A stretch of 63,567 nucleotides of DNA, filler included, from Gonapodya sp. JEL0774 (taxonomy: Eukaryota), in assembly GCA_027604505.1 (NCBI GenBank). It is 41 parts of 41 records of this genome, joined end to end, with 100 filler letters (N's around TTAATTAATTAA, not from the genome) between each part and the next. Parts side by side here need not be neighbours in the genome. Positions count along the whole stretch, not along the records: positions 10,939 to 12,399 come from JADIIX010003111.1; 40 more parts are not named here. One strand, written 5' to 3'. Positions 10,376-58,082 of the stretch are shown here, one piece after another. Position numbers and translations under genes: made by a program. Below the pieces are notes generated by a model. That model was given only the letters and a program-made list of their open reading frames with translations. It searched no databases and was not told the origin of the DNA. Position 1 is the first letter of the stretch. Each line of letters opens with the position of its first letter.

Positions 10376-11187
10376 TACGGAGTGAGAGACTCTCGGAACC
10401 ACTATATCAACACTTTGGCGAGGGGCAGTGAGTTTGGTGCCCTGCAAAATCCAGAAAAAGCATCCTTTGTCGGGTGAGATGATGATAAAAGGCAGTTATG
10501 AAAACATAAGTTGATCCTGTATTATAGCACCTTTCGGATGGAATGATATGTTTACATGGGAAGCAATTAAAGTGGATTGATCCTGTATGTGATCACTGCG
10601 GTCTTGCCAGGCAATTTTATTTTGATGATGTAATGCCATGATATATGCATGAAAGTGACGTTAAAACGAACATCCCTCGAATTCGATAGCCGCTGTCCCA
10701 ACCAACACATTTCTGACGTCATCGCATGGCCTCGTCCGACAAACTCAGATTCCGAGCGTCCCCCGATTTTCCTTCAAGAATTGCTCCCACGTGATTGGTT
10801 TGTGTCCTGTAATAATTTCCACGTTACCTGTGACCCATNNNNNNNNNNNNNNNNNNNNNNNNNNNNNNNNNNNNNNNNNNNNTTAATTAATTAANNNNNN
10901 NNNNNNNNNNNNNNNNNNNNNNNNNNNNNNNNNNNNNNGTTGCTAGAGCTCTGAGGAAGGGCGGCGGTAAATGCACTGTGTCCGGGTGGTATATCTACAT
11001 ACTTCCGCTCTAGTTTCAGAAAAATTGTAGTTTAAAATGCTTATTTACGCTAAAATACAGCAAGGGTCATAATAAAGTTGCTTTGTCACGCAGTGGTCAA
11101 CAACTACTTCGCCTGCGCAAATCGTCGTCGGAGACCCCCTGCTTTGCCAGCACTCTCGACGCTGTTGTCAACTCACAAGAAAAAGGT

Positions 11188-11664
11188 TTACACACATGCA
11201 ATCTCCTTCCTCAGAGGCGCTGACGGGCAGACAATGCCCTCCAAAATCTCATTCGTAGCAACTAACCCACAAACCTTGTAGAGTCCGGTAGTCTCATCCG
11301 CAGCGGCAGACAGAATCTTATTGCCATCGGCACCGAAGAACTCTACGTCAGCGCCAATACCTGTGAAGGAGACCCCTTGCTTTGCCAGCGCACTGCTGGA
11401 CACCAGCTGCATCGCGAGATCGGGAACGTACAGCACATCTCTGAGCAGAACCTCACTGTAGCCGGTGCGAATCCGAATCGTTCCAACACCGTGCACAGCC
11501 AAAGTCTTACCGTTAGCCAGGTGAAGCTTGCTGGAGGACGGCACGATGCTCTCAAAGTTGTCGAGGAGGTGTGACGCGTGATAACTGGCCCCCGAGTCCC
11601 AAAAGAAGTCGTCTTTTCCCCCAATACACCCAGTCCCAAACGAATCCCTATCAAGTCCCAAAAA
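11188..11664 (-). mobile_element. Ty1/copia-type aspartic protease domain, in frame with the capsid ORF
   Basis: FFWDSGASYH, LHLANGKTLAVHGVGTIRI, LRDVLYVPDLAMQLVSSSAL, GLYKV. No stop codon separates it from the MCP. Confidence 0.88.
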
Positions 11665-12399
11665 ACTCGCGAAAGCTAATCCTCCTAAGCCCGATGTGAT
11701 GCGAAGCACGTTGTAGTTAATAGCGAAGACGTGGACTGTGACTGGGCGGGTACCTGTGGTGAGGTTGAGGAAGAGGGTGGTGGACTCGATCCTGGAGAGG
11801 TTTATAGTTCCACTGGGAGCGTGATCTTCTGGACGGAGTGCGAAGGAGTATGTATAGATTCCAGTGCCCGGTCCACGTGTGTGTGAGAACAGAGGAACGA
11901 TTCGTGAGAAATACGCGGAATTGCGAAGGGAGATCCTGTCCTGATTGTTGACCTGAATCTTGGCCTGGGCCACGGTGTCGCCTCCGGCAAAAGGATTTGT
12001 CCCGCTTCCCGCATCTGAGAAGTCGACCCATCTATTTCGATTGTTGGAAACGTTGTCGGTGGGTTGGACGACCCACACGATTTCCTTGGTGGGATGAGAA
12101 AAGTTCAGCTTAATTCGAGCCGTGGACGTCGTGACAGTCTCCCCGCCATTGTATTGCAGCTGGGTAATGAGGTATTCGTGCGCATTGGAACTGAACATCT
12201 TCCTTTCATCACTGTCGAGGAAGACATAGTCGATGAACAGAGAGCATGAAGTCAATGAGGGCACTCCAGACGCGGGCGGCAACCCATCTGAAGTGATGTA
12301 GCACTCGGAAGCAGGGCGAAGCGTGAGACCAATCTTGACCTCGTGATACATGAGCGCTACCAGGGGCAAAGCTAGACCGGGTGAGTTATTCCACCAGAA
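11665..12399 (-). CDS. NCLDV (giant DNA virus) major capsid protein, C-terminal jelly-roll half (5' partial)
   Basis: FWWNNSPGLALPLVALMYHEVKI, IDYVFLDSDERKMF..HEYLITQLQ, LNFSHPTKEIVW, GIYTYSFALRPEDHAPSGTINLSRI, AINYNVLRITSGLGGLAFAS. Intronless. Confidence 0.96.
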
Positions 12400-24967: not shown

Positions 24968-25250
24968 AAGAATGTGCGACGCTTTGGAATTCATCACAGG
25001 TGCAAATGTTTCGTTGTAATCAATTCCATGCTGCTGTGTGAAACCACGTGCCACCCAGCATGCTTTAAAGCGCACCGAGTTGTTGGACAGCTGTTTCAGC
25101 GCATAAACCCACTTTCCTATCAAAACTGGCACTCCCTTTTGCTTTTCCACCAACTCCCAAGTCCCAAATTTGCGAAGTGCTCCAACTTCCACTTCCATGG
25201 CCAATTGCCAATACTTTGCATAAGGGCTATCCATTGCTTGTTTGTAAGAC
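24968..25250 (-). mobile_element. Ty1/copia reverse transcriptase fragment (degenerate)
   Basis: WQLAMEVEVGALRKFGTWELV, KWVY, RFKACWVARGFTQQHGIDYNETFAPV. Confidence 0.93.
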
Positions 25251-26423
25251 TGTTGAGGTTATAAATGTCCGGGGTTCCAATATGTGATAGAGAGTTATGT
25301 GTGAGGGCTTGTGTGTTGTGTGAAGGGTATTTTTTGTACAGTAAATTGTGTGCACAGAGAAACAAGTGAGAATCCATCCCAAATTGATCTCAACAGGTTA
25401 TGAGCCCAGATTGACTATATCAATCATCCAGCCATCTATTTTGAGGTTCTCTGTGCTGCATCAAGGTCAGGGGCTACTTTTACATCTGGCTAAGGGTGTT
25501 CTGGATATGCAGAGACGTCCTCGAGCCAAACTCGTTCATCAATACCCCATTTTGATTATATCAGTCAAAAGACTTTATAAGGCCTTTCTCTCGCTCCAAG
25601 TTTCACCTCAAACGGTTCATAGGTTGTGGAGATATCCTTACTCAAACATTTCCGCTCGATTGGGTGATCGAAGCGGAACCAATTGAGCGCCAGAATCGCG
25701 AGTATCATCTCAGAGCGCGTTACTTTAAGAGCTTTCAGACGATATAAGTTTCATCCAGATCGGACTATTTTTGGTTGTGTTATTGCTGCTCAAAGTTCCT
25801 TGGCTTATTCCATCAGGAGGTGTCAGTCTATTGAGCCTTACAATTTGGCAATCCGAGAGACATCTATTAAGATATTCATCCAGTCAAATTTGAGGAATTT
25901 GAAGTTTCTGGGTTTCTCAATATTGAAGTACGGGTCGAGTTTGGATGCTGAATAGTTCAACAACGGACATTGATAGAAGGACGCGGATACTCCACATCCA
26001 TACCAAGTAATTGTGGATTCCATTGAGCTTCTGCGTCACTCTTTTTGCCAGTGAATCGTACTTTCATGTGTTGCTCATGGTTGATTCGACGTGGCGTGAA
26101 TGGGAGTCCCTGATTCAATGTCCAAATCCATCGAAATTTCCACCTTCAGAGCTCCAGGCTCATAACCTAATGAGCTTTTGTGGACACCCCCCCTTAGACT
26201 TTTGCTCGTAGGTCCGTCGGGGAGGGGACAATCAATCATCTAGGTCTCAAACTTTACAGATATTTGATGCAGACAAGAACCCAGTTGGGTTGCTTGCTTA
26301 TGTTTCTACACTTGATCCAAATGGTGAGCCAATGGCTCTGAATGCTCATGCTTTTCCTGCAACAGCCAGCAGATCTGGCAGAGTTTTAGTTGATTCTGGT
26401 GCAACTGATTGCATTACCTCTGA
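25251..26423 (+). mobile_element. Second copia element: 145-bp 5' LTR, PBS, decayed gag region, protease start
   Basis: LTR TGTTGAG(25251)...CTCAACA(25395), PBS GGTTATGAGCCCAG (25396-25409), and VLVDSGATDCIT at about 26380-26420. Confidence 0.85.
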
Positions 26424-33772: not shown

Positions 33773-34638
33773 GCGACTACCAAGAGTTGGGGCAGTCATC
33801 GTTGTTGAACTTGCAGAAACAATCGAGCCATTTGAGTCTGAGTCGGCTGCCGTCTCCCGACAAACGGCATACAGGGAATTTACCCGTTCCGCGCTGGGAG
33901 ACTCAGCTTCTCGTTGAGGTGGTCGCGGCGAGAACCACACGCGGGATCGATTCCATTAACACGATCAGGGTCATGATTACGACGAATATTTGCGGGCGGG
34001 AGAATCCCGGGGGCTCGGGTGATGCGCTTTTGGCAGCATCGCTTGCTCTACTCTTTCAGTATTCTATCGGTTACTATAATGGAAAAGATGTTTGCTGTGG
34101 AACGAACGGAATGAACGGCGCGCATTGAAAAAATGAATATATTACGCCGTTATATTCACACACAAACGGGATTGATTCTCCCGATGAAGGCACTCANNNN
34201 NNNNNNNNNNNNNNNNNNNNNNNNNNNNNNNNNNNNNNNNTTAATTAATTAANNNNNNNNNNNNNNNNNNNNNNNNNNNNNNNNNNNNNNNNNNNNACCA
34301 AGAACAATTGCTGATATTGCCAGCATTGAGTCATTTCACAGGGTTGCAATCCTTTACCTGTGGCTCAGGTGAGATTAGTTCTAGCATGAGGACACTCACA
34401 CTCCTGAAAATCATCTGCACTCCTTTCTTTCTCTCAGTTTCCGATTCCCCCAGTCTTTCACAAACCAGGCAACTGTGTCAGACTTCAAGCAAGTATGTGA
34501 AACTCTCATTAATGGCTTCTTGCAAGAGTTACCTGCAGAGTCATGGAGGAGGGATAAGAAGTCTGGGGCCCTCCACCTGAGTAACCAACATCACACCCAT
34601 AATTAGAGATATGACATTGAAAGCACGGTACCGTTTTA

Positions 34639-35749
34639 TGTTGCAATACCTGCTAAACCTTGCAGTAATGTAACTGCCTTTGTTTTGCACCATCACATGG
34701 CTGACAAAGTACTGCATCCTTGAGAGTTGATTACATCGGGAATAGCACATAGTAAATAGAGGGGTGTGTGGCACAGTGATTGAGAATATATCTGAGTAGG
34801 CGGACACAAGGGGAGGGCTGAATAGAAAATAATGGTAGCCAAACAATCCTGATGAACCCGGCCTTTTGATAGCGTACAGAGAGATCTGTAGATCACCACA
34901 ATCAGCAAAGTAGGAACAGTGAAAGTCTTTGCTGTATGCTCGATCAAGTGTGTCTGCTAAGGAGACCCCTCCATCGCTCTTGTGCTACCAAGAAATAAAT
35001 GAGAGAAGATGGAGGCCTGATGGTGGGTTTTTCAATTAGTGACACTTGGCACAACACAAACATTACCGGGGAAATGGAGGGTTCCCGCCCCTGAGATCGC
35101 AATCGCTCCAAATTTACTTCCATTAATTCCAACACCTTCCCAATACAATCTCAAGAATCCAGCCTATCAATATCGCTCTTTGGTGCAAGATCAGCTCAAT
35201 TCCCATCGTTTCTTTTTGTCAACCCTCCATTGGTTTGGATGTTCAATGCTCTGGATCACAGACAGCCACTCCACCAGCGAAACAGCCTTTCGGCTTTTCA
35301 ACCAACTCCCAAGTCCCGAATTTGCGCAGTGCTCCAACTTCCTCTTCCATTGCCAATTGCCAATATTCTGCGTAAGGGCCACTCATGGCCTCTCTGTAAG
35401 ACTTTGGCTCGTCAATTTGTTCAAACTTCTCAAGTATGACATTCAACACAAGCGGATCTGCAGAATCATCAGAATCAGAGTCAAAAGGACTGTTTTCCAC
35501 AGTTCCACGTTCACTCCCCCTGGCAATAAACTCCGGTGGGTTGTTACTCATATCTGCAACTGGATCAGGTGAGCTATCACGTCTAACACGTGTAAGACGT
35601 TCAGGAGTTGGACTTGCAGGTTCTGGAAATCTGTGTGAGACACGTGACGCTCTCTGCAGTTTTGGAGGCTCTGAAGGTGCAGGACGGGGTGGTGGTGTTT
35701 GTTGACGTACAGGTACTTCTGGCACAACATCCACTACATCAGGTGCAAT
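34639..35749 (-). mobile_element. Internally deleted copia element: integrase-RT linker, RT start, PPT and a 3' LTR of about 496 bp
   Basis: EPKSYREAM..WQLAMEEEVGALRKFGTWELV breaks off near 35285. A purine tract (TTGGGAAGG) precedes TGTTGGAAT at 35134, with a matching inverted end TGTTGCAAT at 34639. Confidence 0.8.
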
Positions 35750-40565: not shown

Positions 40566-41506
40566 CTACAAGCGATACAAGTCAGCCAGGTCGCTTTCTT
40601 TCACGTCTGTTACCAGCATAGACCCAGGGGAGTGCGTGATGCATAACTCGGGCCTGGATGCTAACACCACCGCCTGCGGTGTCACTCCGCACGCCCAGTA
40701 CACAGGCATCTCTCCGGGTAGCACCTCTACCGCGTCGCCAAAGTCAGGCTCTCCGAGATCCTCGATGCCAATCTGCGCGGGGTCGCCAAGGTGGACCGGC
40801 GCGCCGTGGACCTGCGGCAGCTTGGCCGTGATTAGCACAGCCCGGATGGCATCGGCTGGCGACATGGGCCGCATCGTGACAACCATGTTACCACGGAATG
40901 CTCCTGCAGGTGCACAAGGGATGCTGGTCTTGAACATGGCCACGTTTTTGCCCTGAATAACGTGGCGAAGTGGGATGCCGGCGTCGATCAGCGGCTGCTC
41001 GAAAGAAAAGGAGCACCCGAGGACAAATGCGACCAGGTCGTCCCGCCAGAGGTCGTTGATATCGGTGCGCTCTTCCACGAGCTCACCGTGCCGCCACACG
41101 CGGTAGCGAGGGATGTCTGTTCGGATATCCAGGTTCGCACCTTACAAGGCAGATGGAGGAAGAACGAAATGGGGAGGATGGCGAAAAGTGTGAGTGCAGG
41201 AGTACCAAACATCTGACGTTTCGCGCAGACACAAGCAGTATACTCACCGAGCTTGGGAATGTTGGGGTTCCCTGGTTCTGAGACACCCAGCAAGGGGCAT
41301 GGCTTTGGGTTGCGCTCACAAAACTGGAGAAAGTCGGATGCTGCAGAGGCCGGGAGAATGACCAAGTTCCCTTGGACGTAGTTTGGCGCGGTGCCGCTCG
41401 TGTGGCCAGTCCAGGAACCAGAGCGAATCGCAAGGCGAGCGGCAAGGCCGTTCGATGCCGGGAGCGTCCCCTTCGTGGCGAACACGGGATGGGATCCTGT
41501 TGCCAT
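40566..41506 (-). CDS. D-glutamate cyclase / putative hydro-lyase (DUF1445, YcsI-like), one intron 41141-41247
   Basis: [74 protein letters not shown]. Confidence 0.92.
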
Positions 41507-43599: not shown

Positions 43600-44106
43600 C
43601 TCGGATCCCACGTCCTTCCAAAATTGATTAAAGACGGATACCACATCGAACCAGAATTTGGAAAGGAGGACAGCTCCGTCGTTGTCTCATTCCCGCTCTA
43701 CGCAGGGGACAATGTTCGCACTCTTCAAGACGTTACTATGTGGGAGCAGCTTGGTGTTGCTGCATTTATGCAGCGGTGGTGGTCTGATAACCTCGTTTCA
43801 GTCACTGTGACATTCAAACCCGAAGAGGCACCACAGATTGAACCGGCTTTGAATCTGTACCAGTACCAGATGAAGAGCGTCAGCTTCCTGCAGCTCAACA
43901 CTGACGCGTATGTGCAGGCGCCATACGAAACGATTGACGCCGTCCGGTATGCTCAGGAGTTAAGTGATATCAAAAAACGCAGACATCACATAGTGCAATC
44001 CACGCTAGCCAGCGATACACCAGAAAGTGTACCGATTCTGAAAGATACTCTCGAAGAAGACGGAAGATACGATGCCTTCTGCGATGGCGATAGATGTATG
44101 ATGTAG
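43600..44106 (+). CDS. nrdJ: Class II (adenosylcobalamin-dependent) ribonucleotide reductase, C-terminus (5' partial), intronless
   Basis: GYHIEP..VVVSFP, WEQL..AAFMQRWWSDNLVSVTVTF, KSVSFL, YVQAPYE, and the C-terminal redox pair FCDGDRC. Confidence 0.9.
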   Translation, partial: LGSHVLPKLIKDGYHIEPEFGKEDSSVVVSFPLYAGDNVRTLQDVTMWEQLGVAAFMQRWWSDNLVSVTVTFKPEEAPQIEPALNLYQYQMKSVSFLQLNTDAYVQAPYETIDAVRYAQELSDIKKRRHHIVQSTLASDTPESVPILKDTLEEDGRYDAFCDGDRCMM

Positions 44107-44165
44107 TGCTCGTGTATAATATTTTTTTTACCCGATTTCATCGTGTGGAGCAAAACCAAACGTCT

Positions 44166-45046
44166 ATGGCTACTGCAGTTGGAAGCATATTTTCATTTTC
44201 ATGTGCACAATCTAACTTTACATTTCCTTGGACTTGCTGTACGGGAGGCAGTGAAGACGAACGACAACACGAACATAAACATAAAAAGTCAGGCGGTGGA
44301 TCCTCTTCTGCCACATCGTTGAAATCTATATCTTCTTCGACGTCAACAACCTCTGATAGGCCGCATTATGCTAAAGCAGTCATAGTTCAAGTGTTTGACG
44401 ACATTGAGTTTCGAAGGAACGTCGACTTTTCACGATTACGTGTACATGTCATTTCGACGGATCTAAAATACGTGAATTTTTTGGAAACGTGCCTTGCGTC
44501 ACCGCCGCGTTTGAGCCCCTTTCTGAAAGGCACGGTCTCTGGTAAGACTGGGCGTGTTTTGAGTGGAGTCCCCTTGAACAAGGTACTCACACCAAATTTT
44601 AACCAACTGTATACACGAATTGTCACGCAGGTAAAAAATTCCCAAGCGACTTCACAGTATCATGTTCTAGTGGATGAACGCGAGCATCGTTTTGTACAAG
44701 GCAGCCCAATACTGAACGAGAGCGGAACTATTGTCGGAGTACTTCTTCTGGAAGCTCCATACAATGTCAATGAATCATCCGGTGAGACCTCCATCAACGA
44801 AATAATTGCGAAAGCCCTCTACGCCCTAGTGGATCGTCATGGTGATGTTATTAGAAGCGATACGACATTGAGTGTTCATATTGGAAATCCAAACTCGAGC
44901 GTAAACAGACTGATGCAGAGAGAGCGAATTGCAAATGTATGCGCGAGAGTTCTCGATCTCGCGATCAAGTCCAAGAAGACTATCGCCTTCGAAGCTTTTT
45001 GCGACACTATGCTCTACGAACGAAAATATATCTGTCAGCTGAATAC
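44166..45046 (+). CDS. Intronless hypothetical protein with a PAS-like segment (3' partial)
   Basis: Starts 59 bp after the nrdJ stop. VHVISTDLKY...RFVQGSPILNESGTIVGVLL resembles the PAS/PAC strand motif. Confidence 0.55.
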
Positions 45047-55661: not shown

Positions 55662-56007
55662 ACAAACCTATGTAGTTTCACTTAAGTTGTGATCCTGAAA
55701 ATTTGAATATCCCTTTCCCTCGGCGAGAGATCACTGGAGTACACAAAACATCTACGAGTTTCATATTCTTTGTGTTTTGTTCGGCAATCTCACGGACGGT
55801 GTAGCAGTCAACAATTAATTTTGATTTCCGCGCGAAGCGCGGAGCTCCAGAAGCTTTANNNNNNNNNNNNNNNNNNNNNNNNNNNNNNNNNNNNNNNNNN
55901 NNTTAATTAATTAANNNNNNNNNNNNNNNNNNNNNNNNNNNNNNNNNNNNNNNNNNNNTTGCCCTGTCAAATCCTTCTGTTCAGAACTCGGCTTCACACA
56001 ACGCGCA

Positions 56008-57386
56008 ATGTCCCCTATCGCTACCTGTGAGTCTTAAAGGACATTGCGAACCGTGATCCGGCGAGTGCGCCATTCCTGAAGCGTTTTATCGCGGATCAAT
56101 CGCACCATTCATGAATGCTCTCCCTCTCCCCGTTTTCCGTCAGCTGAGACTCCGATTCAGCCAGTTGAGCCCTTGCTCGTCAAATCTGATGACAACGTCT
56201 CTCTGTTCCCCATCCGATACCCCGATTTGTACGCACTGTACAAGAAGGCGACTGCCTCATTCTGGCGGGTTGAGGAAGTGGATCTCCAAGACGATATTAT
56301 TCAATTCCAGAATCTCACGGAGGGCGAACGACACTTTATCAAGATGGTTCTCGCCTTTTTCAACTTCTCAGACATCATTGTGATCGAGAGTGTCGTACAG
56401 AGAATATTCGAGGATGTGCAAATTCCGGAAGCCCGTCTCTTCCTGTCCTTCCAGGTGGGCATGCACATGAGATTCGTTCAGGAACATTGTCGTTCTGTCT
56501 ATTTTTCTCTAAAGTACTCTTTCCCTTCATCCATCAGGTCGCAATCGAATCGGTGCACTCCGAAATGTACTCGTTGTTCATTGACTCCTTGATCACCGAC
56601 TCCGAAGAGAAGCTCCGACTGTTCCACGGTCTGGAGCACTACCCCTTCCTTCGGAAGAAAGCTATGTGGGCGCGAAGGTTCATCGGCGACGACGTGGACT
56701 TTGGCAAGCGGACTGTTGGTTTCATCATCGTGGAGGGTCTGTTCTTCTCAGCGTCATGTGAGAATACTAAGAACGCTCGCTCGTCCCGTTTCCTGATTCT
56801 AATACGTCGCCGATCTTATTTTCCCCTCTCCCCATGCCTCTAGTTGCGGCCATCTTCTACCTCAAGAAGCGCGGTATCTGCAAGGGCCTCGCCTTTGCCA
56901 ACAAGCTTATCTCTGCGGACGAAGCCCTCCACACCGAATTCGCCGCCACACTTCTCCGCCACGTGCAGAACAAGCCCGACTCTGCCTGGATCCTCGAGAC
57001 CATGAAGGCCGCTGTGGAGGTCGAGGAGGAATTCGTTACCGGATCTTTACCACTCAAACTCATCGGCATGAACTCAGACCTTATGGTACAATATGTTGAG
57101 TTCGTGGCCGACTACCTGCTCGAAATGATGGGATGCCCAAAACATTACGGGGCAGCCAATCCGTTTGACTTCATGGCAATGCAGGGTATGGAGGTAAGTC
57201 TTGCGGTGTTGGGATATGGAATCCACTCACAATCTGACGCCACTTTTAAACGACCTTCAATATCCCTGCCCTCGGAATATCACTTCACTTCAGGACAAAG
57301 CGAACTTCTTCGAAACCAAAGCCGTATACCGTCTCCCTCAGCCGACCAGCTCCGACCGCGTGTTCTCCGTCGACGAAGACTTCTGA
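56008..57386 (+). CDS. Class Ia ribonucleotide reductase small subunit (R2), short and divergent, 4 introns
   Basis: EPLL..LFPI.YP, ASFWRVEEVDL, ESVHSEMY, VEGLFFS, DEALH, NPFDFM, NFFE, FSVDEDF*. Confidence 0.93.
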
Positions 57387-58082
57387 GGATACAACGCATG
57401 NNNNNNNNNNNNNNNNNNNNNNNNNNNNNNNNNNNNNNNNNNNNTTAATTAATTAANNNNNNNNNNNNNNNNNNNNNNNNNNNNNNNNNNNNNNNNNNNN
57501 TGTGGGTGTCGGGGCAGGAGGTGGAAGGTGAGAGTTTCATGGGAGTTTTACCACATCTGATCGAGATTTTGATGGACAATTTATTTCTTTCCGCTCGTCA
57601 AGGTTCGGCTTTCGTTCCAACTCCTCCATCGATGACGATGAGGTACTTCTTCCCACTCCCTTCGGACTCAACGGCAAGATTGTTCCACCTCTCCGACGTT
57701 GGGATGTCTTCGAAGACGAGGAGGAGCAACAGCTCGGTAACATTCGTAAATCGAGCAAGCGGAGGGGGGCCGATCCGGACGACCCTGATCTAGACGAGAT
57801 AGACGGTAGAGAAACCTTGGGCTCCTCCAGAGGTGGGGTGGTGGAGGAGTATTTCACTTGATGTTACCCGTTTCAGTGGAGCTGTGACAGTCAAATTGCT
57901 TGCGCCAGTGGGTCGAGTTGCTGCCCGTATGTAGTGCAATTTTAATTAATATACATTGGTTTGAAAGATAAAATGAAAATGTGCATGCATATGCGCTCTT
58001 CCCACTTCCATGCAATATCATCTTTTGAGCGGAACGTGATCGTGCAGGAACATCCCATCATGAAGGCCGCTCGCTGGTCATA

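Follow-up and report, generated by a model that had tools for sequence, protein, structure and literature searches.

The closest described relatives of the locus reported here include the Mycodnaviridae endogenous elements of zoosporic fungi: of 141 fungal genomes, 17 carry such capsids, including two genomes of Monoblepharidomycota, and in three chytrids capsids stand alone amid host genes (PMC13533422). In Gonapodya prolifera, the viral genes form small islands among host genes (PMC5294986). Giant-virus insertions have been described as embedded among transposable elements (TEs) and mostly silent (PMC8204020; PMC13533422), for example the silent, rearranged viral insertions among TEs in Phytophthora and Acanthamoeba (PMC8204020, PMC12210455), as far as the available portions of these sources go. 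The available main text of PMC13533422 names no copia, retrotransposon or fusion, its sole protease being a cysteine protease, and the available part of PMC8812541 mentions no protease fusion.

Retroelements provide further points of comparison. Ty1/copia elements (Pseudoviridae) carry a helical Gag with a zinc knuckle directly before the protease, and an integrase directly after it, followed by reverse transcriptase (RT) and RNase H. GAG-ENV-POL errantiviruses place a structural gene of an unrelated virus just before POL in an LTR retrotransposon, and the accessible sections of PMC13524379 describe them as multi-copy Ty3/gypsy elements that retain Gag and Pol and encode a fusogen. Moreover, the domesticated genes PEG10 and ASPRV1 keep a retropepsin and have neither RT nor integrase, and ASPRV1 undergoes self-proteolysis (PMC8497776, PMC11402058, both available in part).

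In this report, we describe an open reading frame in the assembly of the fungus Gonapodya sp. JEL0774 in which the end of a giant-virus (NCLDV) major capsid protein runs in frame into a Ty1/copia aspartic protease. Known capsids of the Mycodnaviridae elements stop at their terminal motif, whereas this frame runs on. It shares with Ty1/copia Gag-Pol or Gag-protease a complete DSG protease at Gag-like spacing. It differs in having a double-jelly-roll capsid in place of the helical Gag and zinc knuckle, and its contig lacks integrase, RT and LTR alike. It resembles the errantiviruses in gene order and differs from them in being copia-derived, capsid-bearing and present in one copy (PMC13524379). 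Its protease lacks RT and integrase, as in PEG10 and ASPRV1; according to the portions available, those are mammalian genes that are conserved and expressed, derive from other retroelements and have no DNA-virus partner (PMC8497776, PMC11402058).

The contig and its open reading frame

The window, meaning the whole stretch of DNA analysed (63,567 nucleotides, filler included, from assembly GCA_027604505.1), consists of 41 unlinked contigs of 1441-1464 bp, ordered by falling length and joined by N-TTAATTAATTAA-N, a 12-base spacer between filler. The fused frame lies on contig JADIIX010003111.1, with the following features:

10939..12399, no strand: the entire 1461-bp contig, unlinked to those on either side of it in the window
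11188..12399, minus strand: fused open reading frame of 403 codons plus stop, 5' end open; stop codon 11190-11188
11665..12399, minus strand: capsid half, the last 245 residues of a major capsid protein, from Pfam, sequence homology and a tree
11608..11664, minus strand: 19-residue spacer (57 nt) in the place of the capsid stop codon, with no confident alignment to the copia profile
11275..11607, minus strand: Ty1/copia aspartic protease domain, from Pol_BBD through the GLYK strand; catalytic Asp codon 11598-11596
11188..11274, minus strand: 28-residue in-frame tail plus stop, matching no family and predicted to be disordered
11099..11156, minus strand: degenerate duplicate of the protease 3' part, carrying a frameshift and matching 11336-11394, with a core of 27 nt at 89%

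The single stop-free frame of about 400 codons announced in an earlier note on this DNA is indeed there, reading on the minus strand from 12399 to 11188; it is open at the 5' end because the contig edge falls at 12399, and lacks about 165 N-terminal capsid residues relative to the 410-residue G. prolifera capsid discussed below. The profile search of each half that the note had proposed recovered the capsid families and Pol_BBD alike: Capsid_N at residues 1-62 (profile positions 140-207 of 207, its last third), Capsid_NCLDV at residues 65-240 (E 2.8e-45) and Pol_BBD at residues 266-342 (E 1.4e-16). The stored gene model of the fusion, P0001, ends at GLYK, just before a possible splice donor AAG/GT (11275/11274).

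Base composition is similar across the join, GC3 being 0.62 in one half and 0.63-0.65 in the other. The note had remarked on abundant CpGs, and the observed/expected ratio agrees, at 0.97 in the capsid and 0.91 in spacer plus protease against 0.06 at 34297-34620. The resident copia copies of the window (contigs 24968-26423 and 34297-35749) belong to one family, cover the RT start and are 86% alike over 111 bp. They are decayed, with CpG ratios of 0.32-0.57 and many stops, so that the host likely methylates its TEs. Spacer and protease hold 26 CpGs where 28.4 are expected, which differs from resident copia at P of about 0.01, a comparison with only two copies, neither of which contains a protease. 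The frame has no stops, no indels relative to the nearest capsid and no CpG loss, in keeping with its having been in the genome only briefly.

Other contigs of the window carry eukaryotic gene pieces, including MIF4G, kinase, F-box and MFS families in a family scan. Several further observations concern these contigs. At 43600-45046 (plus strand) an open frame encodes the C-terminal portion of an adenosylcobalamin-type (class II) ribonucleotide reductase, at an E-value of 2.6e-15 for TIGR02505 that is below the cut-off; a 317-residue open frame without a family follows closely downstream, and the contig has the highest CpG ratio of the window (1.19) and is possibly viral or bacterial in origin. 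A ribonucleotide reductase small chain at 55959-57400 (plus strand) is spread over three frames and apparently split by introns, and is therefore likely a host gene. Additionally, a D-glutamate cyclase domain (PF07286, E 2.2e-65) lies at 40569-41141 on the minus strand.

Identity of the capsid and protease halves

The closest protein to the capsid half is the unfused 410-residue capsid of G. prolifera, KXS08972.1 (P0002), which is 81% identical without gaps over 245 residues; the next-closest capsids among the matches listed reach at most 62% identity. Residues 1-244 of the half also match PBCV-1 MCPv1 (E 4.9e-46) among solved double-jelly-roll capsids. Both families of the NCLDV major capsid domain, Capsid_N and Capsid_NCLDV, are represented with their double-jelly-roll homology, the N-terminal portion of about 165 residues lying off the contig. 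In a quick IQ-TREE tree of 47 rows, with no Allomyces reference among them, the half is sister to the G. prolifera capsid (SH-aLRT 100), and the Chytriomyces hyalinus capsid KAJ3224378.1 joins these two in a wider clade (SH-aLRT 98). Judged by sequence, the half fits a Mycodnaviridae-type major capsid protein.

The capsid terminal motif, GxGGLA(F/Y)xx, is whole and ends at residue 245 (position 11665), exactly where the earlier note had placed the normal end of the protein. NCLDV capsids stop right after this motif, whereas the fusion continues for 158 further residues. The note's premise that such proteins normally end here was borne out: 117 loci from viruses and metagenomes yielded 141 such motifs, every one followed by a stop within at most one residue, and 139 of 156 capsid proteins end at most two residues past the motif. 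The other 17 fall outside the search pattern, and in some capsids of that kind the frame continues into a group I intron.

The 47 differences between the capsid half and P0002 include no gaps and are conservative, with a mean BLOSUM score of +0.83 against -0.56 for random missense changes (0 of 10000 draws). This shows purifying selection on the capsid lineage and is not proof that selection continued after the fusion. The half departs at 9 of 88 conserved columns, a higher count than in 34 of 42 homologues, and its terminal branch is longer than that of P0002 (0.15 vs 0.091), both of which count against strict constraint on the capsid.

The protease half has the features of a Ty1/copia protease: the D-S/T-G triad, flap glycines, LxdVlyVP, lLSv and the final gLY strand. 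Its catalytic Asp is residue 268 of the frame, within FFWDSG and after the 19-residue spacer, in line with the note's report of an intact DSG about 20 residues after the capsid. In one frame, a copia profile built from 33 homologue segments, pre-integrase region included, aligns to residues 262-376 (E 2.7e-32), its match ending with the GLYK strand; in the other frames of the contig it finds nothing at E<5. The protease retains all 14 columns that at least 70% of 91 homologues conserve, and its score ranks 73rd of 92 sequences, the others all being in the training set.

A phmmer search with the protease half against 1.84 billion representatives returned 581 hits, with no close relative among the 150 best listed. 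Pol_BBD was present in 25 of 26 hits scanned, 18 of those also bearing Gag, pre-integrase, integrase or RT families, and the WD40 hits of the search (one of the 26 scanned) proved to be false matches. The best full-length relative is the polyprotein P0124 (41% over 113 residues), and no parent copia closer than about 41% was found among the matches listed; TE masking before annotation could explain its absence.

In the AlphaFold model, the protease is predicted to adopt a retropepsin fold, with pLDDT 92-98 from residue 21 to residue 130 of its half; the best match among retroviral proteases is the XMRV protease (E 1.1e-4). With two copies, the model scored 0.68 against 0.00 for the best control and brought the catalytic Asp residues into contact; runs agreed in at least 88% of contacts, at pLDDT of at least 84. 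The half is therefore predicted to dimerise. The mark that it passed is attained by 21 of 30 solved pairs and by none of 23 single chains, yet by one of seven eukaryotic pairs that lack an older solved relative, and the pass may for that reason reflect likeness to solved retropepsins.

Borders of the join and the search for a second fusion

Only 22 residues separate the capsid end from the catalytic Asp, and in 44 copia homologues the end of the zinc knuckle lies 25-93 residues before it, which places the join in the spacer that follows the nucleocapsid. The 19-residue spacer is likely the copia Gag/protease spacer, and the capsid, as the earlier note had put it, sits in the place of Gag.

The copia homology begins past the knuckle position and ends where integrase would begin, the protease having lost both of its usual neighbours. 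WHxRLGH sits 126-167 residues after the protease motif in 19 copia homologues, and neither it nor any integrase start occurs in any frame within the 223 codons of contig past that motif, a distance over which a collinear integrase start would have shown. The note was thus right that no LWHxRLGH or integrase follows. Its statement that neither LTR nor gag precedes the protease holds for the 57 nt between capsid and protease and is not carried further, the sequence upstream of the capsid, where a Gag may yet lie, being off the contig; by the same token, capture of the protease module alone is shown on the downstream side and is not borne out upstream of the capsid.

Beyond the stop codon lies the frameshifted duplicate of the protease 3' part, which the earlier note had overlooked. 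Over its 58 bp (11099-11156) the alignment scores 51, against 32 for the best of 200 shuffles, and in a second test 2 of 500 shuffles did as well. As a separate observation, a perfect 12-nt inverted repeat (10949-10960 and 11205-11216, 244 nt apart) flanks the stop of the frame and the duplicate, and may be due to chance.

Several simple origins of the join were rejected. A plain LTR insertion fails because the junction has no LTR, as the note had argued, and a full tandem duplication of the protease fails at its 5' part, whose match is no better than chance (349 of 500 shuffles). Read-through into a neighbouring viral gene after loss of a stop is set aside because the 0.93 Mb of capsid loci contain no copia protease and the codon TTT lies two changes from any stop. 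Read-through of a group I intron, which also gives NCLDV capsids unrelated C-terminal tails, was likewise dismissed: Rfam RF00028 is absent from the contig and was found near the capsid 3' end in three of four control loci, and such introns interrupt the terminal motif, which is whole in the fusion. These introns lie inside the terminal motif at the capsid 3' ends of L026:5703-5979, L085:6782-7055 and L044:6823-7063, and give annotated capsid proteins false tails (P0008, P0010, P0122). A similar C-terminal tail on the Chytriomyces hyalinus capsid may have the same putative cause, and in L026 a possible homing-endonuclease frame lies behind the intron.

The same architecture, for which the note had advised a search, turned up nowhere else in the collections searched. 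A protein search with the whole frame (221-706 residues, 7998 candidates scored) gave no second fusion in the best 120 of 1569 hits, and one with the protease half (278-2000 residues) returned only the fusion itself among 754 candidates; these word-based searches miss distant relatives. No copia-protease fusion was present among 35 capsid proteins of 801-2285 residues found with the capsid profile, the same profile matched none of 149 protease hits, and no copia protease occurred in the 117 viral and metagenome capsid loci (0/117). The viral, metagenome and prokaryote contigs scanned, from collections that are probably poor in zoosporic-fungus DNA, likewise gave no second fusion. In the literature searched, which takes in only part of the supplements of PMC13533422, no fusion of capsid and copia protease was found. 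The architecture of giant-virus capsid plus copia protease, each part of a known kind, thus appears new in print and among the proteins searched. As an aside, four long NCLDV capsid proteins carry extra families in precomputed Pfam (P0281, PF13392; P0283, PF00415 and PF13540; P0284, PF13385; P0297, PF14312), representing either true fusions or joins made by gene models.

Origin and meaning of the fusion

We tentatively favor, at rather less than an even chance, a real, young and unselected one-off recombination join between an endogenous giant-virus capsid gene and a copia element. The viral gene would have lain among copia debris, and repair or template switching would have joined its end to the copia nucleocapsid-protease spacer. 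A short match perhaps aided the join, as the capsid end AFAS resembles a hydrophobic motif that often precedes copia proteases ([AV][FL]-hydrophobic; 31 of 83 homologues have it 8-33 residues ahead of the catalytic Asp, vs 13% background). This step is weak, because the AF dipeptide lies at -26, one residue beyond the -25 to -13 range of the homologues. A second rearrangement would then have removed the integrase and left the short duplicate.

Retrotransposon Gag-protease cuts at the spacer after protease dimerisation, and the NCLDV capsid C-terminus probably faces the inside of the shell. If the fusion were translated, capsid trimers might by analogy cluster the proteases, leading to dimerisation and to a likely cut at the spacer in the manner of Gag-protease. 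In favor of a young join are the single copy on one 1461-bp contig, the unfused nearest capsid of G. prolifera, the lack of decay, the departures of the capsid from conserved columns and the neighboring duplicate, whose frameshift marks the spot as rearranged. Against it, no parent copia closer than about 41% was seen among the protease matches listed, though one would be expected for a young capture, and all 14 protease columns are kept while the adjoining duplicate is frameshifted. Furthermore, the three breakpoints (the last codon of the capsid, the knuckle-protease spacer and the end of the last protease strand) respect domain borders, which is unlikely for random joins and expected under selection.

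These same domain-exact breakpoints, and a protease intact beside a decayed duplicate, are the reason that some weight is left on a selected gene of the host or of an integrated virus, an unlikely reading in which the frame encodes a self-processing capsid-protease polyprotein. Capsid trimers, we propose, could gather three protease monomers, and dimerised proteases could cut the spacer; the product might be a particle undergoing maturation, or else a decoy capsomer bearing the protease into incoming giant-virus factories. The absence of change in the 14 protease columns, the confidently predicted retropepsin fold, CpGs undecayed unlike those of resident copia, the conservative capsid differences and the lone capsids among host genes of three chytrids (PMC13533422, as available) argue for such a gene. 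Against it, every one of the conservative changes may be older than the fusion, no match exists for the tail that follows the protease, and the uniform stop after the motif suggests that tails are not tolerated in assembling viruses. With a single copy, an unfused sister capsid and no second fusion in the searches, the hybrid element or domesticated gene entertained in the earlier note is so far unsupported. In a fuller proposition, which we consider doubtful, selection in a Gonapodya-like fungus, or in the giant virus integrated in it, maintains a polyprotein that cleaves itself and whose double-jelly-roll capsid has taken over from Gag. Such a product would be a Varidnaviria shell that a retropepsin matures, acting either as a hybrid particle or as an antiviral decoy armed with a protease, perhaps as part of a larger copia-derived element.

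An artefact, either a chimeric read or a mis-join in a fragmented short-read assembly, would suit a 1461-bp contig cut mid-capsid among unplaced contigs, the near-repeats in the spacer with the duplicate 238 bp away, and the one member on one contig in the collection. Single chimeric reads are usually dropped by assemblers, which counts against this explanation. A chance chimera would also have to hit the last capsid codon, in frame and on the same strand, just before a whole protease, and the halves share their GC3 and CpG level; we hold it distinctly unlikely. More improbable again is a larger copia-type element with a captured giant-virus capsid, arranged as Gag-capsid-protease or with the capsid in place of Gag and a distant integrase-RT behind an intron or insertion. 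The 5' side of the capsid is off the contig, nematodes, bryozoans and flatworms have Ty3/gypsy elements with the errantivirus order GAG-ENV-POL (PMC13524379, as available), Drosophila copia splices out most of pol according to the accessible part of PMC3735527, and the possible donor AAG/GT stands after the protease where the stored gene model ends. This reading is opposed by the missing integrase start within 223 codons, by the 35 long capsid proteins, which include no capsid-bearing polyprotein, and by copy number, since an active element should be multi-copy and no further copies were found.

The finding would be without value if the contig were chimeric. Should the fusion be no more than a young relic, it would still document that a giant-virus insertion recombined with copia in a fungal group whose giant viruses are newly described. 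If it is real and used, a double-jelly-roll capsid of DNA viruses and a retroelement protease, from two virus realms and joined in no paper or protein searched, would form one product; Gag would then be replaceable by an unrelated shell, or a fungal defence gene would have been built from two parasites.
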